A stretch of DNA of 37,313 nt, taken from the IMG/VR virus record IMGVR_UViG_3300028549_002563; one strand, written 5' to 3'. The notes beneath the pieces were generated by a model. That model made no database searches. It had not been told where the DNA came from and saw nothing but the letters and a program-made list of their open reading frames with translations. The stretch is from a virus. The translations under genes and the position numbers were made by a program. Shown piece after piece: positions 5,713 through 37,313 of this stretch; positions within the stretch are counted from its first letter, which is position 1, and the number at the start of each line of letters is the position of its first letter.

Positions 5713-6106
5713 TATCTACATCTCCTTTTAAAACTTCAAAAAAATCTTTTAAATTAGTAGTTTTTTCTACTTTTTTAGTTAATTCAATTGCTTTCTCTTT
5801 TTCAATAATTTTATATTGATATACTATTTTTTGATTATTCTTTGCTTGAATTAATTCTTGCTCATAATAAGTTGTCATTCCAGAAAGTGCTGATTTAAAT
5901 TCTCTTTCTTGATTAGTTAAGTTTTGTTCCATTAATATAATCTTCTTTTCATTTTCTTTAATAGTTTCTGCTTTATTTTTGTTTGAATAATAAAGATAAC
6001 TAAAAGAGCTTATAATAACTCCTACAATAGATAAAATTATTATTAACTTATAAACATTAAAAGCAGGAAATGTAAAAGGGAAAATACTTTTAAATAATTT
6101 TTTCAT
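5699..6106 (-). CDS. Inner-membrane i-spanin candidate
   Basis: N-terminal TM segment (LIIILSIVGVIISSFSYLYY) followed by a charged coiled-coil-like region. Paired with the downstream lipoprotein. Confidence 0.65.
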   Translation of the reverse strand: MKKLFKSIFPFTFPAFNVYKLIIILSIVGVIISSFSYLYYSNKNKAETIKENEKKIILMEQNLTNQEREFKSALSGMTTYYEQELIQAKNNQKIVYQYKIIEKEKAIELTKKVEKTTNLKDFFEVLKGDVDNENK

Positions 6107-6132
6107 TTTATACCTCTTTGTTATTGTTTGTT

Positions 6133-6161
6133 ATTTTATTTATTTTTCTATTAAAAGTCAA
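6133..6161 (-). promoter_or_regulatory. Sigma70-type promoter TTGACT-N17-TAAAAT for the spanin-packaging operon
   Basis: Plus strand shows ATTTTA at 6133-6138 and AGTCAA at 6156-6161, with a spacer of exactly 17. Lies 27 nt upstream of the start at 6106. Confidence 0.65.
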
Positions 6162-6538
6162 TTTTATTTAACAAATAACGCTAAATTAATAAAAAAATAA
6201 CGCTAACTACTATAAAAATAACGCTACTTCAATTTGGCGTTATTGGCTTAAACGCCTATATTACGGGCTTTTAACATAAAAATAACGCTAATAACGCTAA
6301 TAACGAACTTTTTCAGGTTGCACCGTGAAAAATTATATAACATCTCTTTTAAATAGTATAAATATTTCTCACGATGAAAGTTGGATTATTAGCGTTATTG
6401 CGTTATTTTTATATAAATTTAATATAATAATAGTATAATAAACCCTATAAACAGGGCTTTACTAGGTCTTTTTAAAAATAACGCTAACTTTTATTTGGCG
6501 TTATTCTAGCGTTATTTTTGGCGTTTAGCGTTATTTTT
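6150..6538. repeat. R1: ~389-bp long direct repeat (partner at 32659-33047) packed with ATAACGC/GCGTTAT words
   Basis: Manual alignment at a constant offset of 26,509 with no indels. About 9 mismatches over the ~370-bp core 6167-6538. Forward ATAACGC at 6175, 6197, 6218, 6282, 6291 and 6478, with variant ATAACGA at 6300. Reverse GCGTTAT at 6237, 6392, 6400, 6498, 6509 and 6528, with variant GCGTTTA at 6521. Confidence 0.9.
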
Positions 6539-6613
6539 TTTATAATTTAATAAATTCTTTTAAATATTAACTATATTTTTAAATATCTTCTTATTACTAG
6601 TTAATAGAATAAG

Positions 6614-6659
6614 TTCTTATTTCCATTTTAAGCCTTTTCTATTAAATTTAATATATAAT
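6614..6659 (+). promoter_or_regulatory. Candidate early promoter preceded by 13-mer TTCTTATTTCCAT
   Basis: 13-mer at 6614-6626. TATATAAT at 6652-6659. Lies upstream of the ORF at 6684. Confidence 0.45.
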
Positions 6660-6683
6660 TTTGTTATATGGAGGTATAAAAAA

Positions 6684-6992
6684 ATGGAAATCGATTATTA
6701 TCAGTTATCAAAAAGATTAAATACACTTTTCTTATTTGAAGAAATTACAGGTTATTTAAAGGATGCTTTTAAAATATGTTTATTAAACTATGATAAAACA
6801 ATAGAATTCAAAAGTGAAGCACATCTTGAAAAGTTAGCTTCAATAACAATTAATTCTTTTGTTGAAAGAAGAGTTAATTTAAAAAGTAAATTTACAGCAA
6901 TAGAAAGTATTAAGAAAAATAAAGAAGAAGTTTTTGATTTTTTGCAATATGATTTATGGGAAAAATCTATTAATTTAAAAAAATATAGATAA
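6684..6992 (+). CDS. Hypothetical early protein
   Basis: ORF track; SD GGAGG 9 nt upstream of the ATG. Confidence 0.8.
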   Translation: MEIDYYQLSKRLNTLFLFEEITGYLKDAFKICLLNYDKTIEFKSEAHLEKLASITINSFVERRVNLKSKFTAIESIKKNKEEVFDFLQYDLWEKSINLKKYR

Positions 6993-8820: not shown

Positions 8821-8871
8821 TCTCTTAAATATTGATACAAAACTTTTTAGAAAGTTTTATATCAGTATTTG

Positions 8872-8880
8872 AAGTCGTCG
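8872..8880 (+). promoter_or_regulatory. AAGTCGTCG word (copy A) in the leader of the primase-helicase gene
   Basis: Read directly. Starts 44 nt upstream of the ATG at 8916. The next 12 nt (CTTTAATACTAG) are near-identical to copy B. Confidence 0.5.
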
Positions 8881-8915
8881 CTTTAATACTAGAAAAAAAT
8901 ACGGAGATAAATAAA

Positions 8916-10583
8916 ATGGAAAAAAATGCACAAAAACAATCAAGAATAGCTTCTACATTATTAGCTAACAAGGTTGAAAATGAAATTAAAAAAACAATAG
9001 GTGTAGAAAACGATATTATGTTTGATAGTATTGATGTTGCTGATGAAAACCCTTCTTTAATGTCTATGGCTGAATTAGCTGAAATAGCTGAGGAATTAAA
9101 AAGTGTAAAAAGTATTACAGAAATAAGAGGTTCATTAACTTCTCCAAATGAAGATTTTAAACCTACTTATGATGAATTAATTAAAACTGGAAGAATTGGA
9201 GAAAGTCTTTATATGTATTTTGATTATAACAGAGAAAAATATATATTGTTAGATAAAGAAAGCGGAGATAGAAAAGTTTTAAATACTGCTTCTGCAGGTC
9301 ATAAATTATTTGAAGTTTTTGTTAAATACGGTATAGAATTAAAAAATCCACAATCTGATTTAAAATATGTTAAAAAAGTTATAGTTGATTTTGATTTAAA
9401 AAGACCTGAATTCTGGACTACAAGTATGGGAGATTTCTTAAATGAATTTCAAGAACAAAAAACAAAATTAGGTGTTATTTCTGATTTAAGAAAAGAAGAA
9501 ACAGAAAGATATAAAAATTTAGCTTTTTTAAAAAATAACTGTAAAGCTATTTATTCTTTACTTTATAATTTACATGAGAATAATGATGATGCGGTAAAAC
9601 ACTTCATTAATTATTTAAGCACATTTGTAAATGAAAGAGAAAAAATACCTACTGCTTTTATGTATGCAGGTATTGAAGGTGCAGGTAAAGGTATATTAGT
9701 GTCAGTTGTTTTGTCTTATATCCTTGGAGATGAATATACAACAAGTCAAATGGCATCATCTCTTAAAAAAGATTTCAACGGTTCATTAGAAAATAAATTA
9801 TTAGTTAATTTTAATGAAGTTTCATCTGATTTTTCAAAAACAGATTCTGCTACACAAAATTTAAAAAGTTTAATAACTGATAATACATTTTCGTTAAATG
9901 TTAAAAATCAAAAAGAATTTGACGCTAAAAATAATTTTATTGTTATATTAAGTCAAAATATTAAAACAGGCGTTAAAATATCTTTAACAGATAGAAGATT
10001 TAATTATTTCGTTCAAGAAAGAACATTAAAAGATGTTGCTGAAAAAGATTTTAAAAAATCTATTAAAGTATTCATTGAAGAAGATATTAAATCTGAATTA
10101 GATAACTTTGTAAGATTTATTGCTTTATTTGATTATGATAAATATATAGCACAAGATTTATTCGAAACAGAAAGTAAAAGAAGAGCACAGGTTGCTACAA
10201 GTTCATCATTTGATGTTTTAATTAAACAATTAAAAGAAAGAGATTTAATGGCTATTGTAAGTGATGTAGAAGATATAGTTAATGCTTATAATGAAAGTGA
10301 TGATAAAAAGAAATATACAGATAACTATTATTCTTGTATTAGACTTTATAAATCAGCTTTAAAAGATTTAGAAGATGAATTAGAAAAAGATTGTATTAGC
10401 AATAAAACTTTAACTTGTATTTATAGTATTTTAGTAGAAGATGCTTCAACTAAAACAGATAGATTACTTAATAAAATATTTGAAAGTCATTTTGGAAAAT
10501 CAATTGTTAAAACTATTAATGGAGAAACAAAAAGAGTTAGAAGTTTAAAATCTTCTTTTGATGAAAAAGAAGTATGTTTTTAA
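8916..10583 (+). CDS. SF3 helicase / D5-P4-family primase-helicase-like replication protein
   Basis: Walker A GIEGAGKGIL and Walker B-like LLVNFNEV, in a size and context typical of the phage/plasmid primase P4-family C-terminal domain. Start moved from 8832 (non-ATG) to the ATG at 8916, which follows GGAGA. Confidence 0.7.
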   Translation: MEKNAQKQSRIASTLLANKVENEIKKTIGVENDIMFDSIDVADENPSLMSMAELAEIAEELKSVKSITEIRGSLTSPNEDFKPTYDELIKTGRIGESLYMYFDYNREKYILLDKESGDRKVLNTASAGHKLFEVFVKYGIELKNPQSDLKYVKKVIVDFDLKRPEFWTTSMGDFLNEFQEQKTKLGVISDLRKEETERYKNLAFLKNNCKAIYSLLYNLHENNDDAVKHFINYLSTFVNEREKIPTAFMYAGIEGAGKGILVSVVLSYILGDEYTTSQMASSLKKDFNGSLENKLLVNFNEVSSDFSKTDSATQNLKSLITDNTFSLNVKNQKEFDAKNNFIVILSQNIKTGVKISLTDRRFNYFVQERTLKDVAEKDFKKSIKVFIEEDIKSELDNFVRFIALFDYDKYIAQDLFETESKRRAQVATSSSFDVLIKQLKERDLMAIVSDVEDIVNAYNESDDKKKYTDNYYSCIRLYKSALKDLEDELEKDCISNKTLTCIYSILVEDASTKTDRLLNKIFESHFGKSIVKTINGETKRVRSLKSSFDEKEVCF

Positions 10584-10725: not shown

Positions 10726-11124
10726 ATGAAAAACTTATTAACTGTAAATAAAGAACTTGTTTTGCTTGAAAAAGCATTGTTATCTAATGTTATGTTTTTA
10801 GATGAAAATAATAAAGGAGGTTATTTCTATTATTTTAAAAAAAATATAAATACCTTTAATTTAGTATTTGATGTTTTAAATGCTAGAAAAGATGGATATT
10901 CTTTATTATCTTATAATGAAACATCTAATGAAATGATTATTATCGTCAATGGAGTATCAAAAGAACTTAAAATAACTGATTTTTTTGAATACTTTGTTTA
11001 TCCATCAATATCAATTAAAGAAGCTGATGAATTAAGAAGACATTTTATTAATATACAAATATCTTATGAAGATTTAATTAATAGAATGCGTTCTAAATAT
11101 CAAAAAGAATATGATGTTATATAA
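10726..11124 (+). CDS. Hypothetical early protein
   Basis: ORF track; SD GGGAGGAG upstream. Confidence 0.8.
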   Translation: MKNLLTVNKELVLLEKALLSNVMFLDENNKGGYFYYFKKNINTFNLVFDVLNARKDGYSLLSYNETSNEMIIIVNGVSKELKITDFFEYFVYPSISIKEADELRRHFINIQISYEDLINRMRSKYQKEYDVI

Positions 11125-11153
11125 GGGCTATAAATGCCCTTTAAGGCTTAAAT

Positions 11154-11380: not shown

Positions 11381-11399
11381 TTAATAAAAGGTGATAGAT

Positions 11400-12776
11400 A
11401 TGTATTACTTTAAACAAAACCTTAAAGAAAAGGATTTAAAAGATAAAAAGGAGATATTATCTCCTCTTTTTGAAACTGCTAGAAAATTTTATAATGAATT
11501 AGTTTATAATGCTAAAAATAAAGAAGATAAATTTACTTATTCTTTAAATGATAAAACTATTTCAAATTCAATACACGCTAAGAAACTAGGAAGTTTTTTA
11601 GTTAAAACTATTACTTATAACTTCAATATCAACACTTCAAATTATTTAAAAAATCAATCAAAAGATGCTTCTTATTCAAAACCCAGTTTTAGAAATAAAG
11701 ATAGTGAATTTTTTATTAGTTTTTATGGAAATAATATAAGTGTTAAAAATGATTATATTAATTTAAAATTAAATACTAAAACTATAAGTTTTAAAATTCC
11801 TAAAAATTTCTTTTTAAAACATAAAGAAATAAAACAATTAAGATTACACATATCTAAATACGGTTATTATTTAGTTTATCATTATGAAAACGCAATAAAC
11901 ACATCTAATACGCTTAAATATAAAGCAGGTATAGATTTAGGCGTTGATACATTAATAGCGTGTTATTCAGAAGATATAGCTCCGTTAATTATTTCTGGAA
12001 AATATATTAAATATTTAAATTATAAGTTTTCTTTAAAAATAGAAAATGCTTCTAATGAAGAAGATGTTTTAAGAATAAAAAAAGAACGTGATTTTAAAAT
12101 AAAAGCATCTATAACATTTGCTGTTAAGAGATTATTTGATTATTTAAACTATGCTAATGTAAAAGAAATTTATCTTGGAGATTTTAACGGTATAAAAGAA
12201 AAAGTTGTAGCTAGAAACTTTTATTTTATACCGCATCATTTTTTAAGAAGAAAAATTAAAGATTACTGTCAAAAGTTTAATATTAAATTTAATCTTCAAG
12301 AAGAAAGTTATACATCTAAAACTTCTTTTTATGATTTAGAAAAACCTGTTAAACAAAATTTTTCAGGAGAACGTATAGAACGTGGATTATTTAGAACAAA
12401 AGATGGATTATTGATACATGCAGATATTAACGGTTCAGCTCAAATATTATCTAAAAAACATTTAGTTATTAATAGAGATAATATATTGTTAAAACCTTTT
12501 TTTATTGATTTAGTTAAAGAAGAAATAAAAGTTAAAAGTAAAATCAAGTGTTTTTTTAGTAAAGAATATAAAAAAGAAAAAACAATAGAAGAAAAATTTA
12601 AACAACATAAGAAAGACCCTTTAAATTTTTATTTTGAAAAATATGCTTCTTTTAATGCTTATAATAACGCAGGAACTAAAATGTTTTATTTTTATGATAA
12701 AAAAGATAAAACTATAAAATCTAACATAAAAAACAATGAACAACTTGTAAATAAGTTTTTCAATAAACTTATTTGA
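11400..12776 (+). CDS. tnpB: TnpB-like RuvC-fold protein (IS200/IS605 accessory / IS1341-like clade), stand-alone
   Basis: RuvC-I is AGIDLGVDTL (Asp at nt 11934-11936). GDFNGIK stands where the canonical EDL glutamate would be. An alternative Glu lies in QEESYTSK. RuvC-III is HADINGSAQIL. The GERIERGLF segment replaces the CxxC zinc-finger pairs. ATG at 11400 follows AAGGTGA; the track start at 11391 is GTG. Confidence 0.8.
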   Translation: MYYFKQNLKEKDLKDKKEILSPLFETARKFYNELVYNAKNKEDKFTYSLNDKTISNSIHAKKLGSFLVKTITYNFNINTSNYLKNQSKDASYSKPSFRNKDSEFFISFYGNNISVKNDYINLKLNTKTISFKIPKNFFLKHKEIKQLRLHISKYGYYLVYHYENAINTSNTLKYKAGIDLGVDTLIACYSEDIAPLIISGKYIKYLNYKFSLKIENASNEEDVLRIKKERDFKIKASITFAVKRLFDYLNYANVKEIYLGDFNGIKEKVVARNFYFIPHHFLRRKIKDYCQKFNIKFNLQEESYTSKTSFYDLEKPVKQNFSGERIERGLFRTKDGLLIHADINGSAQILSKKHLVINRDNILLKPFFIDLVKEEIKVKSKIKCFFSKEYKKEKTIEEKFKQHKKDPLNFYFEKYASFNAYNNAGTKMFYFYDKKDKTIKSNIKNNEQLVNKFFNKLI

Positions 12777-12899: not shown

Positions 12900-12918
12900 G
12901 CCCTTTTAATTTAAGGGC
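12900..12918. terminator. GC-rich hairpin GCCCTT-ttaattt-AAGGGC between convergent genes
   Basis: 6-bp stem. Lies between the tnpB 3' region and the stop of the minus-strand ORF at 12924. Confidence 0.4.
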
Positions 12919-16988: not shown

Positions 16989-17636
16989 TTACACCTCTAA
17001 AAATATAAAATCTAATCTTGCATTCCAAGATACTTTATTACCGTTATATTTAACTCTTAATATATTGTCATTGTTTTCAACTACTTTCCAAAAGATAAAA
17101 TAACTTAAAGGTGTTGTAGTAGTTGTTCCTAATTTTATCAATGTTTCATCAATATCTTCACTTGAATAAGAAGCTCCAAAAACTAACCTATTACCTACAC
17201 CTACTCTTATAGCATCATTAACTGTTATTTGAAATTCTGTATCTGAAATAATTGTAATGCTATCTATATATTTAGATGTTAATATATCACCTGTTTTAAC
17301 TAAAAAACTACAATAAGCACTTATTCCAAAACCTGCCGTAGTTCCATCTTTTTTAATTTCTTTCCAGTCTAACGTTTCAATTTCAGGATCTTTATTTATA
17401 TTGCTTCTTATAGCAACGAACATTTTATTATTTTTTGTTATAATATCATCTATTAAATAAGTTTTTATAGAACTCCAAATATTTCCAGTTCTTGATAATT
17501 CATCTATTGAAAACTTTCTATAAGAAGGCATTGAATGACTATCAGATAATATTACATCAGAAGTATCTCCTCCGAACATAAAGGTATCAAAATCATTAAT
17601 TAAGTTTTCTAAATCTTGTGCACATAAAACTGCCAT
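16989..17636 (-). CDS. Receptor-binding / tail-fibre paralog 1
   Basis: IDDIITKNNKMFVAIRSNINKDPEIETLDWKEI aligns with the paralogs. 215 aa. Confidence 0.6.
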   Translation of the reverse strand: MAVLCAQDLENLINDFDTFMFGGDTSDVILSDSHSMPSYRKFSIDELSRTGNIWSSIKTYLIDDIITKNNKMFVAIRSNINKDPEIETLDWKEIKKDGTTAGFGISAYCSFLVKTGDILTSKYIDSITIISDTEFQITVNDAIRVGVGNRLVFGASYSSEDIDETLIKLGTTTTTPLSYFIFWKVVENNDNILRVKYNGNKVSWNARLDFIFLEV

Positions 17637-25417: not shown

Positions 25418-25460
25418 AAAATTATTTTAAGAAGAGATAAAGGGCTTTTAACCCTTTATA

Positions 25461-31422: not shown

Positions 31423-31614
31423 TTTGTTAAACCTCCAAAGTTTATTGTTTTTTTTTATTTGTAATTTAATTTTAACATATCCATATTAAATATTAAAAGT
31501 AAAATAAAAACAAATCCATATTTTTATTTTTGCTGTTAAAATATTAACATAAAAAATTATTTTATCAAAATTAAAATTATTGCGGTTTATTTTGCGGTTA
31601 TTTTTTAAGAGTTA

Positions 31615-31657
31615 AAAATACACTTTTTAGGAGGAGATAAAATAAAAAGTGTATTTT
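31615..31657. other. 14-bp perfect hairpin AAAATACACTTTTT / AAAAAGTGTATTTT with loop aggaggagataaaat
   Basis: Read directly; lies inside the scaffold-capsid intergenic gap. Confidence 0.6.
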
Positions 31658-31664
31658 CCTTGTA

Positions 31665-31673
31665 AAGTCGTCG
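31665..31673 (+). promoter_or_regulatory. AAGTCGTCG word (copy C1)
   Basis: Read directly. Plus-strand orientation although the flanking genes are on the minus strand. Confidence 0.45.
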
Positions 31674-31747
31674 TTTTCATTATTATTAAAAATGTTCGTT
31701 GGCACTAAAAATAATAAATAAAAAAATGGAGAGGTATCGCCGTTAAA

Positions 31748-31756
31748 AAGTCGTCT
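31748..31756 (+). promoter_or_regulatory. AAGTCGTCT word (copy C2)
   Basis: Read directly. Followed by the 11-bp hairpin TGTTATAAAAG (31760-31770) / CTTTTATAACA (31785-31795), whose loop is aaaatgcgaataaa. Confidence 0.45.
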
Positions 31757-31800
31757 GTTTGTTATAAAAGAAAATGCGAATAAACTTTTATAACAGGGAA

Positions 31801-31829
31801 ATTATAACATTTTTTAAATTAGATGTCAA
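31801..31829 (-). promoter_or_regulatory. Perfect consensus sigma70 promoter TTGACA-N17-TATAAT
   Basis: Plus strand shows ATTATA at 31801-31806 and TGTCAA at 31824-31829, with a spacer of exactly 17. Lies 45 nt after the scaffold stop and ~380 nt before the capsid ATG. Confidence 0.7.
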
Positions 31830-31873: not shown

Positions 31874-32608
31874 TTAATTTAGGTTAATACCTAATTGTTT
31901 AGCTTTTTCTATTTTTTGTTGTGCAAAATCAGAAATTCCATTTTGTTTATTACTTCCTTTGAAAGTATTAACTCCGCTTCCTGATTGAATATCTGCTTTA
32001 AATAAAAAACCTAATTTTTCATCTGCTTTTATTGAATTAACTTTATCTGCTAATGTCATTTGAACTCCATTTATTCTAGCTGTTGTTCCATCTTCATTCT
32101 TAAATAATATTTTACCTTCTTCAATTGATGCACCTTTTTTTAATTCATCAACTATTATTTTATAAGCTACATCATTAACCGCACTAATAGTAGTTGCTGA
32201 TTTATATAATTCTAATTCTAATTTAGTTTCAAATATTTCTTTTTCTACTGAACTTATAGAAGTTTTTAATTCTATATCTTTATTTTTAACTGCTTCTTCC
32301 ATTTTTTGAATTTCAAGTTTTAAAACTCTTTCTTTTTCTGTTAAATCAACATCTTTTTTACTTAATATAACATTTAATTTTTCATTAACTGTTTCTTCTG
32401 TTAATTCTTCATTTTCATCTATTCCTAATTTTGTTTTAACTGCTTTTGTAAATCCTTTATATTTATCTCTTTTAGATACAGCGTCATTTAACTTTGCTTC
32501 TAATTTAGAAACTTCTCCCGACAAAGTATTGTAGTTTGACTCTAATTTAAGAACTTCTGCTAATCCTGCTTCACTTCCTGCTAATAGTTGTTTTAATTGT
32601 TCGAACAT
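31874..32608 (-). CDS. Scaffolding protein
   Basis: 244 aa, helical, charged and coiled-coil-like. Lies immediately upstream of the capsid gene. Confidence 0.65.
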   Translation of the reverse strand: MFEQLKQLLAGSEAGLAEVLKLESNYNTLSGEVSKLEAKLNDAVSKRDKYKGFTKAVKTKLGIDENEELTEETVNEKLNVILSKKDVDLTEKERVLKLEIQKMEEAVKNKDIELKTSISSVEKEIFETKLELELYKSATTISAVNDVAYKIIVDELKKGASIEEGKILFKNEDGTTARINGVQMTLADKVNSIKADEKLGFLFKADIQSGSGVNTFKGSNKQNGISDFAQQKIEKAKQLGINLN

Positions 32609-32641
32609 TTATTATTACCTCTTTTGTTTTTTATATCTGTA

Positions 32642-32670
32642 ATAATATAACTTTTCTTTTAAAAAGTCAA
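32642..32670 (-). promoter_or_regulatory. Sigma70-type promoter TTGACT-N17-TATTAT for the head-tail operon
   Basis: Plus strand shows ATAATA at 32642-32647 and AGTCAA at 32665-32670, spacer 17. The -35 box is the first element of repeat R2. Confidence 0.65.
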
Positions 32671-33047
32671 AATGTTTTAACAAATAACGCTAAATTAATA
32701 AAAAAATAACGCTAACCGCTATAAAAATAACGCTACTTCAATTTGGCGTTATTGGCTTAAACGCCTATATTGTGGGCTTTTAAGATAAAAATAACGCTAA
32801 TAACGCTAATAACGAACTTTTTCAGGTTGCACCGTGAAAAATTATATAACATCTCTTTTAAATAGTATAAATATTTCTCACGATGAAAGTTGGATTATTA
32901 GCGTTATTGCGTTATTTTTATATAAATTTAATATAATAATAGTATAACAAACCCTATAAACAGGGCTTTATTAGGTCTTTTAAAAAATAACGCTAACTTT
33001 TATTTGGCGTTATTTTAGCGTTATTTTTGGCGTTTAGCGTTATTTTT
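32659..33047. repeat. R2: second copy of the ~389-bp ATAACGC-rich repeat
   Basis: See R1. Same orientation, offset 26,509, and all ATAACGC/GCGTTAT words conserved. Confidence 0.9.
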
Positions 33048-33128
33048 ATAAACTTATTTGATAAATTGTTAAACTTCTTATATTTTCTTTTAATATTAAT
33101 ATATAACATATTAAGATTTCATTTATTG

Positions 33129-33137
33129 AAGTCGTCA
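33129..33137 (+). promoter_or_regulatory. AAGTCGTCA word (copy D)
   Basis: Read directly; starts 38 nt upstream of the ATG at 33167. Confidence 0.45.
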
Positions 33138-33166
33138 AAAACATTTAAACAGAAAAAGGAGAAATT

Positions 33167-33304
33167 ATGTTTAAAAATGCGATAATAAATAAAGTTGCCC
33201 AAGAGGTTAGAATAAGTATGATAATGACATTTCACGCTTTTAAAATGCTTTCTGCAATAGCAGTTATTGATTATGTTTTTCAATTAGGCATATTCTTTAA
33301 ATAG
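33167..33304 (+). CDS. Small hydrophobic protein, 45 aa (MFKNAIINKVAQEVRISMIMTFHAFKMLSAIAVIDYVFQLGIFFK)
   Basis: Hand-translated and below the ORF-track cutoff. SD AGGAGA lies 4 nt upstream. One predicted TM-like stretch. Confidence 0.5.
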   Translation: MFKNAIINKVAQEVRISMIMTFHAFKMLSAIAVIDYVFQLGIFFK

Positions 33305-33391
33305 ATTTATTTCTCCATTTTGGAGAAAGATTGATTTGACTTTTAACTTAAATTTTATTATTATTTGCTTATAAAAAAAAAGGAGATTAAA

Positions 33392-33769
33392 ATGACTAAA
33401 CAAGAAATTATTTATAATGTAGATAAGTTTTTAATGGGCAAAAAAATAACTTTTTTAGAAGAAGTTATAAAAGGTTATAGAAGTTATTCAGATTTTAAAT
33501 TAATAGGAACATCTTTTAATTGTATTGAAGAAATAGAAGAAACAAAAGAAAATAAAGAATTAACTTATTTTATTTTTGATGTTTTCTTTGATGAAGATTA
33601 TACTAAATATGTAAATATTCTTTTTATAAATATAAAAAACATAGATAATAAATGGGATTTATTAAATTTTAAAAATATTCCAGATGAATTTATTTTTAAA
33701 TATGAGTCTATGATAGGAATTATAAAAACATTTGAAGATTATGAATTAATGCTTAAAAACTCTATTTAA
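33392..33769 (+). CDS. Hypothetical protein
   Basis: ORF track 33365-33769. The ATG at 33392 follows AGGAGA. Confidence 0.75.
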   Translation: MTKQEIIYNVDKFLMGKKITFLEEVIKGYRSYSDFKLIGTSFNCIEEIEETKENKELTYFIFDVFFDEDYTKYVNILFINIKNIDNKWDLLNFKNIPDEFIFKYESMIGIIKTFEDYELMLKNSI

Positions 33770-33936
33770 GTTTTAATTTAGTTTCCTTTTGGAATTAATT
33801 TTTAATCTTCTCTCTACTTCTTGCTTAATATAATCTTCATTTAAGATTATATTTAAAACAAAAACTCCATTTTTAATTATAGGTTCTATTGTTATTTTAT
33901 CTTTCATATTAAATTGCTCGCTAAAATCATTTTAAG

Positions 33937-33954
33937 GCGGTTATAACCGCTTTT
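33937..33954. terminator. Palindrome GCGGTTATAACCGC followed by TTTT
   Basis: Read directly; lies between the convergent 33392 ORF and the endolysin gene. Confidence 0.45.
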
Positions 33955-34038
33955 AATATTAAATCAGATAGATTATACCCAAGGCTTTAAATAAAGTTTA
34001 AAGGCTTATAAGGGAATTACAAAAATATTATATATTAT

Positions 34039-34461
34039 TTAAGTTTTAAGTTTTAATTCAAAATGTGGATAATCTTTAAATGATTTCCAATCTCCACCCC
34101 AGATAATATCAATTCCTAATCTTTTAGCACTTTGTTTTACTATAACTGCTAATTCTTTAAATCTTTGTATATTATTCCAGTCTATCGGATAAGGAGCTAA
34201 ATCAACAGCTAAGGATGGAGAATAATTATGCATTGATTTCTTATTAACTCCATCTAAATTAGTCACTGTTGAACCCACTTTAACCCACTTTCCATCTCTT
34301 AAAACTCTTCCTTTTTTAAATAATTCTTGTTGTTCTGCTACTGTTCTCTGTCCATAAATAACTGTAAAGTCATAATACTTAATTGCTTCTTCACATACCT
34401 TTTTTAAATCGGGATGAACTGTCGCTAACTTTTCTTTACTTTTATTTCCTAATGTTGGCAT
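34039..34461 (-). CDS. Endolysin, peptidase M15 (VanY / L-alanyl-D-glutamate peptidase type)
   Basis: SMHNYSPSLAVDLAP and GGDW...DYPHFE match the remembered H..(A)VD and D.PHFE zinc-ligand motifs of M15 phage lysins. Confidence 0.8.
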   Translation of the reverse strand: MPTLGNKSKEKLATVHPDLKKVCEEAIKYYDFTVIYGQRTVAEQQELFKKGRVLRDGKWVKVGSTVTNLDGVNKKSMHNYSPSLAVDLAPYPIDWNNIQRFKELAVIVKQSAKRLGIDIIWGGDWKSFKDYPHFELKLKT

Positions 34462-34462
34462 T

Positions 34463-34723
34463 TCACTTTTCCTCTATATTTTGATTTTGTATTACTGTTT
34501 CTTGTGTTGAATTATTATCTATATATTTACTTCCCAATCTTTGAAGGCCTACACCCGCTAAAAACACACCCATTAATTCAGCAGATAAAGTTCCATTCAT
34601 TGAAACATTTATTATTGCTCCTGTTGCTGTTCCGTTAGCGATATTACTCCAAATTTTAGTATGCGATAAGCTTCCATCTTTATCAGATATTAATTCAAAT
34701 AATTTATTTTTAATTTTATTCAT
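34463..34723 (-). CDS. Holin candidate
   Basis: 86 aa immediately upstream of the endolysin. Two weakly hydrophobic segments and a polar C-terminal tail. Confidence 0.5.
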   Translation of the reverse strand: MNKIKNKLFELISDKDGSLSHTKIWSNIANGTATGAIINVSMNGTLSAELMGVFLAGVGLQRLGSKYIDNNSTQETVIQNQNIEEK

Positions 34724-34750
34724 TAGTTTATTCCTCTTTTAAAAGAAATA

Positions 34751-35211
34751 TTATAACTGATTAACAATCTCTTCTATATATTTAATTTCTTCTTCATTAA
34801 TATTATACTTTTTATATAGATAAGCATCTGTTATTGTTTTTGAATAATCTTCAGCTGGAATATATTTAAAATTTATTGAACTTATTAAAATTCCCTTAAA
34901 ACTTAAATATAATAAAAACTTAAATAACTTTGTTTTTGTATAACTTAAAAAGTTTTCTGCTTCTTCTTTATTATAAGTTGTATATAACAATAAAAATGTT
35001 TCTGATACTATTTCATTAGCTTCTAATAAAAAACATCTTGATTTTTTATCTGTTTTTGACATACAAATCTTATATTTTAAAACTTCATCTTCATTTTTTA
35101 AAACTTTATTAACATAATATTGCTTATTATTCTTACAATAAATTTTTATTAATCCTTTTTCTTCACCTTTAAAAAAACCTCTATATCCAAAGGGATTAGA
35201 TGTATATATAT

Positions 35212-35215
<4 letters not shown>
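34751..35215 (-). CDS. Target-recognition-domain-like protein 2 (paralog of 35331-35825)
   Basis: Aligns with the upstream paralog across ...KYK..., F(L/N)(L/I)LY, ...(L/F)FKF(L/F)L.L... and the C-terminus LYKKYNINEEEIKYIEEIV. Confidence 0.65.
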
Positions 35216-35330
<115 letters not shown>

Positions 35331-35337
<7 letters not shown>

Positions 35338-35825
35338 TGTATAGTTTCCTCTATATATTTAATTTCTTCTTCTGTTAAATTAAATAACTTATATAATTTT
35401 TCATCATTCCATTCTTCTTTAAAACTTAATAAAGGAACAAATCTAAATGCATTAAAATTCATATCTTGTGTTTTCTTTTTTAAACTTAAAAAAAACTTAA
35501 AAAAATTAGTATTAATATAACTTATATAATTTAAACATTCTTCTTTACTTTCACTTAAATATAAAATATTAAAAGTTAAAGAACAAATATCATTTTTATC
35601 TATTAATTTAGGATTAAGTTTAAAATTATATTCTTCACTTGCTTTTGCTAAAACAACTTTATACTTATTGTTAAATCTTTCTTCTAATAAATCTTTATGA
35701 ATATATCCTATTTTTCCAAATTTAAGATATAACTTAATACTATCTTCAAAAGGTTGATTTTTATAATATAAAAAGTTAGTTGGAAATTTAGAATGAAAAA
35801 ATTCTGTATCTGTTAATGTTTTCAT
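35331..35825 (-). CDS. Target-recognition-domain-like protein 1
   Basis: The C-terminal LNYISYINTNFFKFFLSL...FRFVPLL...LYKLFNLTEEEIKYIEETI resembles the end of TaqI-like / HsdS-type specificity domains. The ATG lies 2 nt after the MTase stop and has its own GGAGA. Confidence 0.65.
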
Positions 35826-35827
35826 AA

Positions 35828-36670
35828 TTATATCTCCGTGTTTAAAACTTTTTTTAATATATCAATACCTTTATTATCTCTTATAAAAACATCAAATTCA
35901 TTTAAAATTCTTTTTCTTGAAGATTTAGTTTCACCTTTATAAAACTCTTCATATAAAGTTTCTCCTGTATATTCTTTATCTATAAGAAAATACAATACAC
36001 CTCCCGCTATATCAACATTATTAAAAACTTCTTTACTACTTTTAAAGTCCTTTATATATTTAATGTGTGGATAATTTAAAAAGAAGTTTCTGAATTTATC
36101 TAATCCCTTTCCGCCTGTTAAAAATCTTGAAGGAACAATAAAACTAATATATCTACAATTCATTTCTATTGCTTGTAATATAAAATTCTGATAAATCGGT
36201 TTAGCAGATGCTCCAAATCCGCCGTCCATCATCTGATACGGTGGATTTCCTATAATAATATCAAATTCATAATTTTTAAAATAATTATCTTTTAAAGTAT
36301 CTTGGCAAATAATATTTTTACTTAATTTATCTTTAAAAAATAATAAATCATCAAAAGATAAATTAAATTTTTCAGAACAAGAACTTAATATTAAAAACAA
36401 TCTTTCAATAGTATCATTAACATTTATTTCACATATATCAGAACCGAATATAGAAGTTATAGCAATATATAAATCTTCTATATCTTTACAATTAGATAAT
36501 TTTCTTTTTAATATAGCATCTAAAAAATTACCGTTTCCGCAAGTAGGTTCAAAATAAGTAGTTTTTATTTCATAACTTTCTTTTTTATTTAAATCTAACA
36601 TTTCATTAACAATAAAATCAGGAGTATAAACTTCTCCAAGTCCTTTTATTCTTTCAGTTGTTTCTTTCAT
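35828..36670 (-). CDS. N6-adenine DNA methyltransferase catalytic module (gamma class) lacking its own TRD
   Basis: Motif I is FEPTCGNGNFL and motif IV is IIIGNPPYQ, in that order. 280 aa, which is about the size of the M.TaqI catalytic domain alone. Confidence 0.8.
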   Translation of the reverse strand: MKETTERIKGLGEVYTPDFIVNEMLDLNKKESYEIKTTYFEPTCGNGNFLDAILKRKLSNCKDIEDLYIAITSIFGSDICEINVNDTIERLFLILSSCSEKFNLSFDDLLFFKDKLSKNIICQDTLKDNYFKNYEFDIIIGNPPYQMMDGGFGASAKPIYQNFILQAIEMNCRYISFIVPSRFLTGGKGLDKFRNFFLNYPHIKYIKDFKSSKEVFNNVDIAGGVLYFLIDKEYTGETLYEEFYKGETKSSRKRILNEFDVFIRDNKGIDILKKVLNTEI

Positions 36671-36677
36671 TTAATTT

Positions 36678-36723
36678 AAAATCTCCATTTTTTTTGTTTA
36701 ATAATAGCAAAAATGGAGATTTT
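36678..36723 (-). promoter_or_regulatory. 15-bp perfect hairpin occluding the methyltransferase SD
   Basis: AAAATCTCCATTTTT (36678-36692) is the exact reverse complement of AAAAATGGAGATTTT (36709-36723). On the mRNA the 3' arm carries GGAG and ends 7 nt before the ATG at 36670. Confidence 0.55.
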
Positions 36724-36729
36724 TTTCAA

Positions 36730-36849
36730 ATAAATAAATATTTTATATCTTATTAAACAAGACTACAACCCTTTAAACCTGAATTCGGTAATCTAAAATC
36801 GAAGTTTGCGTTTTCCAGTTTATTAATAAGATATAAAATATTTATTTAT
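36730..36849. repeat. 25-bp perfect inverted repeat flanking a 70-nt relatively GC-rich core
   Basis: ATAAATAAATATTTTATATCTTATT (36730-36754) is the exact reverse complement of 36825-36849. Confidence 0.9.
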
Positions 36850-36856
36850 GTTATTA

Positions 36857-36910
36857 CTCGATATACACCCTATCGAGCGGTTCTAGTCAATCAAAGCTGA
36901 ACTAGTCAAT
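36857..36910. repeat. Hairpin CTCGATA-tacaccc-TATCGAG, then 9-bp direct repeat CTAGTCAAT x2
   Basis: Stem at 36857-36863 / 36871-36877. Direct repeats at 36883-36891 and 36902-36910. On the minus strand each repeat reads ATTGACTAG, which contains a TTGACT -35-like box. Confidence 0.7.
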
Positions 36911-37036
36911 TAAGATGACATTATAACATTTTATTAAAGAAATTGAATAAAAAAATATTCAAAAAGATAAATTGAATATAAAAACTTTCATTTTTTCAAT
37001 AAAAAAGATATTATTATAAAAAAAAGAGGATAAACA

Positions 37037-37231
37037 ATGAAAAATCTAAGATTTGTTATTAGTTTAACAGATAAAGAATATAATTCTTATTATATTGCTG
37101 ATTATAACGCTAAAACTAATTTAATACATAAAGCTTTATCATTTAAAGATGAAGAAACTGCTAAAAACTATATTTTTTTAAACATAAATAAAGAAAATTA
37201 TATAAATTTTAAATTAATTCCTATTATTTAA
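37037..37231 (+). CDS. Hypothetical early protein, 64 aa
   Basis: ORF track; SD AGAGGA upstream. Its 3' part lies in the terminal redundancy, so bases 1-139 are the same gene's 3' end. Confidence 0.75.
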   Translation: MKNLRFVISLTDKEYNSYYIADYNAKTNLIHKALSFKDEETAKNYIFLNINKENYINFKLIPII

Positions 37232-37313
37232 CATTTCTTATTTCCATTTTTAACATTAACTTTTAATTTTATGTTAATATTCTTCTGTTATAAAAAAATG
37301 CGGAGGTATAACA
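37093..37313. repeat. Second copy of the 221-bp terminal redundancy
   Basis: Identical to 1-221 by manual comparison. Implies a unit genome of 37,092 bp. Confidence 0.95.
37235..37280 (+). promoter_or_regulatory. Duplicate of the 143-188 early promoter region (terminal redundancy)
   Basis: 13-mer at 37235-37247; identical to 143-155. Confidence 0.5.

Follow-up and report, generated by a model that had tools for sequence, protein, structure and literature searches.

Replication origins built from iterons and served by superfamily 3 (SF3) helicases are already known, as are phages with two origins, and the pair of long repeats described here, R1 and R2, would be a variant of these. The pair lies in a viral DNA of 37,313 nt (IMG/VR virus record IMGVR_UViG_3300028549_002563), hereafter 'the window', a term that always means this whole stretch. 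The described system to which the pair is compared most directly is phage SPP1, whose origins oriL and oriR share the same organisation and are both bound by one phage initiator (PMC6316719). In SPP1, oriR is found in the late region, on a moron-bearing segment that interrupts the structural-gene order and has transcription signals on both sides. One proposal is that forks stall at oriR, which would trigger the change from theta to concatemeric replication, aided by a Holliday-junction resolvase (PMC6316719; PMC3485210).

Related arrangements are known from smaller elements. The origins of Staphylococcus aureus pathogenicity islands (SaPIs) comprise 6-12 iterons around an AT-rich centre, with at least two oppositely directed iterons on each side (PMC9371898). 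They are read by Rep, a self-loading hexameric helicase that recognises the iterons through a C-terminal winged helix, and the word differs between elements (PMC9371898). An SF3 helicase followed by a winged helix is also the arrangement of P4 alpha and of pRN1 ORF904, in which the winged helix likewise reads the iterons (PMC2777425). For phage NrS-1, TTTGGTTA is the experimentally defined primase recognition site of the phage enzyme (PMC8718748), and 8-nt recognition sites have been suggested as a possible origin (PMC7102993).

Here we propose, with a probability of roughly 0.5, that R1 and R2 are a duplicated iteron-type replication origin for an SF3 helicase encoded in the same genome, comparable to SPP1 oriL/oriR. 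From sequence comparison and structure prediction we infer the origin function, the identity of the word-binding protein and what the second copy does. An origin fits the pair better than the duplicated enhancer or operator put forward in the original prediction, which had been made from the DNA letters of the window, because the copies have a quasi-palindromic anatomy and their word family co-occurs with an SF3 helicase family.

A duplicated, word-rich module

The window covers an entire phage genome (23.9% GC), a circular or terminally redundant unit of 37,092 bp in which positions 1-221 are identical to 37093-37313. The R1 and R2 cores (Table 1) can be aligned gap-free at a fixed offset of 26,509 and differ at nine of 372 bp (97.6% identity), namely at R1 positions 6208, 6209, 6263, 6264, 6275, 6439, 6462, 6473 and 6506. 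Each copy contains 12 exact ATAACGC/GCGTTAT words, six per orientation, and none of the nine mismatches falls inside a word. Throughout the window these words number 30 against 1.84 +/- 1.5 expected, a count attained in 0 of 100 shuffles; R1 and R2 account for 24 of them, and no further iteron-like cluster was found elsewhere in the genome. The copies are 10.6 or 26.5 kb apart on the circle, depending on direction, and by arithmetic recombination between them would split the unit into one circle of 26,509 bp and one of 10,583 bp.

The original prediction had described the same gapless alignment with word-free mismatches and the same resolution of the unit into two circles, and all of its counts and coordinates for the repeat are correct. 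The related words that it reported elsewhere turned out to be different features: TTGCGGTTTATT, present twice, belongs to the leader of the capsid gene, and GCGGTTATAACCGC is a terminator-like hairpin.

Each copy is a quasi-palindrome whose single strand folds with an energy of -119 kcal/mol (z = -11). Read towards the late genes, the module starts with an outer array of words at ~20-bp spacing, followed by a GC-rich hairpin, a 36-bp A+T tract and two adjacent words. After a centre of ~85 bp come three adjacent words in the opposite direction, a second hairpin region, a second outer array and the -35 box of a late promoter. The centre is bounded in each copy by inverted CTGAAAAAG-like motifs, and the central stretch is 100% identical between R1 and R2. 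Within the R1 centre, a 40-bp segment at 6325-6364 has 15% GC, and 6340-6362 is the part most diverged in a close relative, L080. Furthermore, the hairpin at 6440-6460 (AAAGCCC-N-GGGTTT) is of the same class as operon-end hairpins at 11123, 12900, 25438 and 33937, and relatives conserve its sequence as AAAGCCC-N7-GGGCTTT.

Several other identities for parts of the module were tried, and all but an internal promoter were rejected. The words, judged by eye, do not fit the consensus of DnaA boxes or IHF-like sites, and they vary between phages. An internal sigma-70 promoter in the centre may exist, but is represented by weak candidates only, with a -10-like TATAAT/TATATT that is kept in L080 and no acceptable -35. 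Two small open reading frames (ORFs) inside the repeat (37 aa at 6325-6438 and 31 aa at 6248-6343) meet a 1-nt deletion at 6333 and many substitutions in L080. Moreover, Rfam 15 gave no match at the gathering threshold across the window and only chance-level scores in 6050-6700 (E = 0.18-0.93), and a tRNA scan of the window found no genes.

Selection on the words and concerted evolution

L080 is ~91.5% identical to the window over 12 kb and allows the R1 copy, the one compared here, to be followed between genomes. The two R1 copies are 88.2% identical; word positions are unchanged throughout (84 of 84), against 244 of 288 other positions (Fisher p = 9.5e-6), which indicates purifying selection on the words. 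Hairpin stems are also kept in L080, and the middle of the centre and one spacer have strongly diverged. R1 and R2 of the window resemble each other (97.6%) more closely than the orthologous R1 copies of the two genomes do (88.2%), and the words differ between phages, which shows that R1 and R2 evolve in concert. The earlier suggestion that selection or gene conversion maintains the pair is supported on both counts, with words invariant while spacers drift and, as gene conversion would produce, an identity that is higher within than between genomes.

Paired modules in related phages

The phage isolate collection has no DNA match, either for the repeat or for 25 kb of the genome, and searching IMG/VR and 185,579 bacterial genomes with the capsid and portal turned up no close relative and no prophage. 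Portal and helicase homologues at 40-96% identity are present on metagenomic contigs, designated below by L numbers. Two direct module copies were found in L066 (6097-6445 and 16098-16468, 78% identical), in L072 (189-530 and 14221-14558, 89% identical) and in L078/L085 (95% identical, the contig ending inside a copy); for the L066-type phage, two is the exact number in the 29/33.8 kb examined. One copy of each two-copy genome always heads the spanin/terS operon, terS being the small terminase gene. The site of the other varies: it follows the RuvC gene in L066 and L078 and the tail-tube gene in L072, and it precedes the scaffold gene in the window.

More distant relatives show one cluster in the stretch examined. 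Its site in L074, L075, L089 and L090 corresponds to that of R2, with the MuF-like gene on one side and the scaffold gene on the other; the L076 cluster comes after RuvC and the L069 cluster after the tail-tube gene. All relatives' modules have hairpins, an AT-rich or (TA)n centre and at least two oppositely directed words per side, and the inner-array layout around an AT-rich centre recurs in L066, L072, L078 and L076. Across the family, the words are variants of G(T/C)GT(A/T)A (Table 1). The comparison with relatives that the original prediction had proposed thus finds two direct copies kept with different words, and the repeats are supported as functional and under selection, not as an isolate-specific accident.

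Beyond the family, more distant helicase homologues in Aeromonas and Pseudomonas phages have no word clusters within +/-6 kb. A pattern scan of IMG/VR for ATAACGCTAATAACGC gave 55 matches, of which the five word-richest loci were checked (two by eye) and proved to be coding Asn-Ala repeats in unrelated viruses; the remainder were treated as chance.

A separate observation concerns assembly. The L078/L085 contig ends inside a repeat, and L083 and L095 start inside one; L083, a 99.98%-identical contig of the window phage itself, stops at window position 32705. A search with the capsid protein for the R2 region of L080 gave only a 6.4-kb contig, and this too stops within R2. As contigs of relatives and of the phage itself stop inside the repeats, the repeats break short-read assemblies of this phage family.

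The shifting site of the second copy raises the thought of a non-autonomous mobile element, a foldback resembling a miniature inverted-repeat transposable element (MITE) or a palindrome-associated transposable element (PATE), perhaps mobilised via the IS605-type TnpB gene of all family members. The strong foldback, the two similar hairpins and the conservation of the TnpB gene beside the helicase gene would all suit such an element. We nonetheless consider it extremely improbable. Four phages with differing words have the first copy in a syntenic place, heading the terS operon; it is therefore old and vertically inherited, yet it co-evolves with a partner. Selection falls on the 12 words rather than on the ends, the genome lacks a TnpA gene, bacterial genomes yielded no copies, and the word-richest IMG/VR matches inspected are unrelated.

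An SF3 helicase as candidate word binder

A duplicated origin calls for a protein that reads the words, and the sole recognisable replication protein of the phage is its SF3 helicase (Table 1). The gene product matches the profiles DUF5906 (E = 6e-14) and TIGR01613 (E = 4e-8, below the TIGR01613 cut-off), and it is related to the C-terminal region of the NrS-1 enzyme both in sequence (E = 1e-23) and by Foldseek (E = 6e-14 over ~470 columns). It has no prim-pol domain, and its true start is probably the ATG at ~8922, which gives 553 aa as in the close relative. Homologues of gp38, gp39 and gp40 were not found in the window phage.

Because the word core is common across the family, one would expect it to be bound by a protein that is itself conserved. 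The helicase, TerS and two small late proteins qualify in this respect, and the small early proteins do not. The C-terminal ~108 aa of the helicase are modelled as alpha-beta-alpha-alpha-beta-beta, the winged-helix order, with a predicted local distance difference test score (pLDDT) of 75. In the putative recognition helix, a few positions differ between phages with GCGT-type and GTGT-type words.

A link between words and helicase is also seen in NrS-1 (L079, AB746912). All 11 genomic GTGTAAC words of this phage lie at 17062-17377 (2.1 expected), in a cluster that starts 11 bp after replicase gene 28 and overlaps the annotated hypothetical ORF 29. The sole TTTGGTTA of the NrS-1 record, at 17198-17205, falls inside this cluster. 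Moreover, L090-type phages and NrS-1 have an identical 8-mer word, GGTTACAC, and among the ORFs in 21 kb of L090-type phages only the helicase has a detectable NrS-1 homologue; the word family thus travels with the helicase family. By its sequence the cluster is a candidate NrS-1 origin; it is not described in PMC7102993 or PMC8718748.

The surroundings of these clusters also bear on DNA packaging. The NrS-1 cluster is directly upstream of terS, and R1 heads the operon that holds both terS and the large terminase gene, terL. The arrays could accordingly be packaging (pac) sites, at which the small terminase would bind to either side of a central cleavage point, in the manner of P1 pac or SPP1 pacL/pacR, with the second copy as a second packaging start. 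Sets of short words flanking a centre do resemble P1 pac; in addition, the assembly closes as a circle, and TerL is of the Terminase_6N/6C type that is common in headful-packaging phages. We regard this reading as very unlikely on account of where the clusters lie and of what terminases they accompany. The only cluster seen in L090-type phages is flanked by the MuF-like and scaffold genes, ~5 kb downstream of terS, with none near terS; R2 is likewise not near terS, and the second copies of relatives follow the RuvC or tail-tube gene. Furthermore, TerS of NrS-1 and TerS of the window phage show no relation by BLAST although their words are related, and L090 and NrS-1 share the 8-mer with no detectable TerS homology.

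Late promoters and transcriptional control

On the minus strand to the left of R1 lie a spanin-like gene, two small conserved genes, terS, terL, the portal gene and a MuF-like gene, and to the left of R2 the scaffold and major capsid genes. To the right, on the plus strand, R1 is followed by small unannotated genes, then the SF3 helicase gene and a TnpB-like gene, and R2 by two small genes. The original prediction had likewise placed a late operon on the left of each copy and plus-strand genes on the other side. Paralogy between the first genes right of R1 and right of R2 was considered and rejected. R1 itself lies 1.2 kb upstream of terS, within the same operon.

The structural genes have five minus-strand promoters of the class A(A/T)TTGAC(T/A)TTT-N17-TAnnnT, at 6161, 25417, 28902, 31829 and 32670. 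As predicted, AGTCAA at 6156-6161 and at 32665-32670 is the TTGACT -35 of a minus-strand TTGACT-N17 promoter. It belongs to the promoter class and not to the repeat proper, because the same -35 region is present at the three late promoters that have no repeat (25417, 28902 and 31829).

Such junctions could mark a late-gene control cassette, in which the word arrays are operators for a phage repressor or activator that gates sigma-70-type promoters and the hairpins insulate from read-through. Both window copies end 14 bp upstream of a TTGACT -35, and a TTGAC(T/A)-N17-TAnnnT promoter also follows the module in L066 (a and b), L078a, L076, L074 and L072a. All paired copies are direct and stand at the starts of late transcription units, and the module hairpins are of the same class as operon-end terminators. 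In addition, the consensus host-type promoters of the structural genes would need restraint early in infection. The control cassette is the main rival of the duplicated origin, and we hold it to be possible but less likely. The module occurs at only two of the five late promoters, and its distance from the promoter ranges from 0 to ~150 bp: the L072_b module has no TTGAC-type promoter after it, being followed at once by a ribosome-binding site and a start codon, and no promoter is evident after the L069 module.

The search for a regulator bears on the same reading. Among the early proteins, searches of Pfam, PHROGs and NCBIfam detected no transcription regulator or helix-turn-helix protein, several small proteins having no assigned function. 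A conserved small early regulator sought across relatives yielded one weak family (w_6684 ~ L066_4106 ~ L095_1347, E = 0.015), which has no annotation, and small early proteins are barely conserved although the word core is shared. Twelve sites in a quasi-palindrome with an AT-rich centre are origin-like rather than operator-like, and the word family accompanies the helicase as far as NrS-1, a phage with which no second regulatory or replication protein is shared. Of the original idea that one shared upstream region is wired to the late operons, it holds that the module abuts two late promoters, and it does not hold for the other three. The enhancer or operator proposed with it agrees with the late sigma-70-type promoter that usually follows the module, and is at odds with the varying distance and with the regulator that was not found. 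The origin reading and control of late promoters are not exclusive.

How a duplicated origin might work

If R1 and R2 are origins, the helicase (of the NrS-1 C-terminal-region, P4-alpha or SaPI-Rep kind) would bind the words via its winged-helix-like C-terminal domain, assemble on both sides of the centre, melt AT-rich DNA and load itself, leaving priming and synthesis to host enzymes. The second copy might be a second origin. Alternatively, as has been proposed for SPP1 oriR or P4 crr, it might be a partner acting in cis or a barrier to forks. The copies would stay alike under the demand that both fit one protein, with gene conversion homogenising them. Directly upstream of strong late promoters as they are, the bound initiator or replication itself may influence late transcription. 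The second copy sits at junctions that elsewhere consist of a terminator hairpin and a TTGACT promoter (for example, window 25438-25389), and recombination between such junctions could move it.

A number of points weigh against a duplicated origin. Paired copies are always direct and always at the starts of late transcription units, an arrangement that an origin does not obviously need and a transcriptional element does. The centre as a whole is no more AT-rich than the 24% GC genome, only sub-tracts being so, and GC skew tracks gene orientation only and is uninformative on the origin. The helicase as binder of the words is predicted from co-occurrence and domain topology only: its full-length model is of moderate quality (pLDDT 66.7), Foldseek matches of the C-terminal part, mostly winged-helix proteins, are not significant (best E = 0.2-1.5), and the co-variation of helicase residues with words comes from 4-6 sequences and could be phylogenetic. 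Neither window copy adjoins the helicase gene, unlike in SaPIs and NrS-1, R1 being 2.3 kb from it across the divergent junction and R2 ~13 kb around the circle. Finally, the NrS-1 cluster is immediately upstream of terS as well, and its position does not separate the origin, packaging and late-promoter readings.

Joining replication and transcription leads to a further scheme, an origin combined with a late-gene switch, similar to the SV40 (simian virus 40) control region, in a tailed phage; we think it doubtful. In this scheme, the SF3 helicase would act on word arrays that head two structural operons, and origin firing or occupancy by the initiator would time late transcription. The second copy would be a movable partner that shifts from one late-cluster junction of terminator hairpin and TTGACT promoter to another, with gene conversion keeping it identical to the first. 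As a possible fork barrier, it might also trigger concatemers, the RuvC-like resolvase taking part.

If the duplicated origin is real, an origin and its initiator would be defined for a whole uncultured family of low-GC phages, and the biochemically studied NrS-1 would gain a concrete origin candidate. The pair would also be a second independent case, after SPP1, of a phage with two origin copies, one of them among the structural genes. As the position of the second copy shifts between relatives, its purpose becomes approachable by comparison.

Features of the module and the surrounding genome

Table 1. Coordinates in the window of the two module copies, their parts and associated features, with the words of related phages
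Feature	Position	Strand	Description
R1 core	6167-6538		copy 1 of the iteron module, 372 bp, aligned to R2
R2 core	32676-33047		copy 2 of the iteron module, 372 bp, aligned to R1
R1 outer array, late-operon side	6175-6243		ATAACGC at 6175, 6197, 6218 (21-22-bp spacing) and GCGTTAT at 6237
R2 outer array, late-operon side	32684-32752		R1 equivalent 6175-6243
R1 hairpin region, late-operon side	6236-6268		stem GGCGTT/AACGCC 6236-6256, overlapping GCCT..GGGC 6254-6268
R2 hairpin region, late-operon side	32745-32777		R1/R2 differences located in the loop
R1 inner array	6282-6306		AATAACGCT x2 and degenerate ATAACGA, 9-bp spacing, directed away from centre
R2 inner array	32791-32815		R1 equivalent 6282-6306
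R1 centre	6307-6391		bounded by inverted CTTTTTCAGG / GATGAAAG; R2 equivalent 32816-32900
R1 inner array, other side	6392-6406		GCGTTAT x2, 8-bp spacing, directed away from centre; R2 equivalent 32901-32915
A+T tract	6407-6442		candidate unwinding element, 36 bp, 97% A+T (3% GC); R2 equivalent 32916-32951 (6% GC)
Hairpin AAAGCCCTGTTTATAGGGTTT	6440-6460	minus-strand reading	-8.7 kcal/mol; R2 equivalent 32949-32969
R1 outer array, replication-gene side	6478-6534		ATAACGC at 6478; GCGTTAT at 6498, 6509, 6528
R2 outer array, replication-gene side	32987-33043		R1 equivalent 6478-6534
Late promoter TTGACT-N17-TAAAAT	6133-6161	-	serves spanin-like gene through terS, terL, portal, MuF
Late promoter TTGACT-N17-TATTAT	32642-32670	-	serves scaffold gene and downstream genes
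SF3 helicase gene (DUF5906, P4/D5 type)	8832-10583	+	homologue of the NrS-1 polymerase Head-helicase-Tail region
GCGGTTATAACCGC	33937-33950		terminator-like hairpin in convergent gap
Word, window			GCGTTAT, also given as GCGTTAT(T)
Word, L072			GCGTAAGA
Word, L066			GTGTAAGA
Word, L078			GTGTAATAG
Word, L076			CTGTAAGA
Word, L074			GTGTTATGC
Word, L069			CTGTTACCGTA
Word, L075 / L090			GTGTAACCGC

Beside the late promoters, the genome has a second promoter or operator class, distinct from the TTGACT-N17 promoters of the structural genes. It is marked by the exact 13-mer TTCTTATTTCCAT, present six times on the plus strand (window 143, 6614, 7000, 7830, 8775 and 10646, with 37235 as the terminal duplicate of 143), ~35-40 nt upstream of a TGnTAnAAT-like -10 and before six plus-strand, replication-side genes. 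Analogous repeated upstream segments were seen in the early region of L066.

Two of the late promoters without a module have features of their own. The promoter at 31801-31829 (minus strand) is a perfect consensus, TTGACA-N17-TATAAT, followed by a leader of ~380 nt (31423-31800) and the major capsid gene; the tandem TTGCGGTTTATT pair lies inside this leader, at 31580-31604. After the tail-tube gene, the minus-strand segment 25389-25458 holds a terminator hairpin (25438-25458, -10.1 kcal/mol) and then a TTGACT-N17-TATGAT promoter. L072 and L069 have an iteron module at the equivalent junction.

R2 stands in a segment of ~5 kb (32609-37092 and 1-646) that has the MuF-like gene (647-1621) at one end and the scaffold gene (31874-32608) at the other and contains an M15 endolysin, a holin-like membrane protein, a methylase module and small genes. 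This R2-bearing segment looks like an inserted accessory segment, because the MuF-like and scaffold genes are only ~1 kb apart in relatives such as L066. The late cluster of the window phage also encodes a RuvC-like resolvase. In the methylase module, two paralogous target-recognition-domain-like ORFs lie downstream of an Eco57I-like N6-adenine methylase gene, with a perfect (AG)23.5 microsatellite between them at 35241-35287 (ORFs of this neighbourhood, all on the minus strand: 34751-35215, 35331-35825 and 35828-36670). Such an arrangement could provide phase-variable or switchable methylase specificity. A third divergent intergenic region contains a perfect 27-bp inverted repeat (36730-36756 / 36823-36849) around a 66-bp GC-richer segment, followed by two copies of TAGTCAAT; this region has no match in the close relative L080.

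On the replication side, a TnpB / OrfB_IS605-like gene at 11391-12776 (plus strand) lies just downstream of the helicase gene, and so it does in all family members examined, L067, L069, L081, L090 and L095 among them. In the window it is flanked by GC-rich hairpins at 11123-11141 and 12900-12918. Rather than a newly inserted element, the gene appears to be a conserved and perhaps domesticated component.

Comparison with known systems

Among the systems considered here, SPP1 resembles the window phage in having two distant copies (~13 kb apart on its circle) with repeats and an AT-rich unwinding element. R2, moreover, lies in a ~5-kb segment that interrupts the structural genes, and a RuvC-like resolvase is also encoded; the SPP1 segment, genes 8-10, lies between MuF-like gene 7 and scaffold gene 11, as R2 does here. 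The machinery differs, as SPP1 uses the initiator gp38 with the DnaB-type helicase gp40 and its loader gp39, whereas the window candidate is an SF3 helicase only. SPP1 oriL lies inside gene 38, whereas both window copies are intergenic, 97.6% identical over 372 bp and quasi-palindromic, with hairpins, and abut late promoters.

With the SaPIs, the window module shares its plan of 12 words, AT-rich tracts and oppositely directed inner arrays in a genome with an SF3 helicase. A SaPI has a single ori immediately downstream of rep, whereas the window has two copies, neither of them next to the helicase gene, and the window helicase is of the DUF5906 / NrS-1 C-terminal-region lineage. NrS-1 itself has the homologous Head-SF3 helicase-Tail region and an 11-word cluster with the same core, and differs in having one cluster, next to the replicase gene.

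P4 offers the idea of a cis-acting partner. Its ori and crr are separate clusters that share one short iteron, and a single SF3 primase-helicase, alpha, binds both via a C-terminal winged helix; the second cluster, crr, is required in cis. Alpha carries a DnaG-type primase domain, and unlike the window copies, ori and crr are neither long repeats of near-identical sequence nor linked to late promoters. In SV40 and other polyomaviruses, an SF3 helicase initiator binds palindromic short words beside an AT tract, at an origin that lies between divergent early and late units and at which binding also regulates transcription. SV40 is a eukaryotic virus with a single copy, and the analogy is one of layout only.

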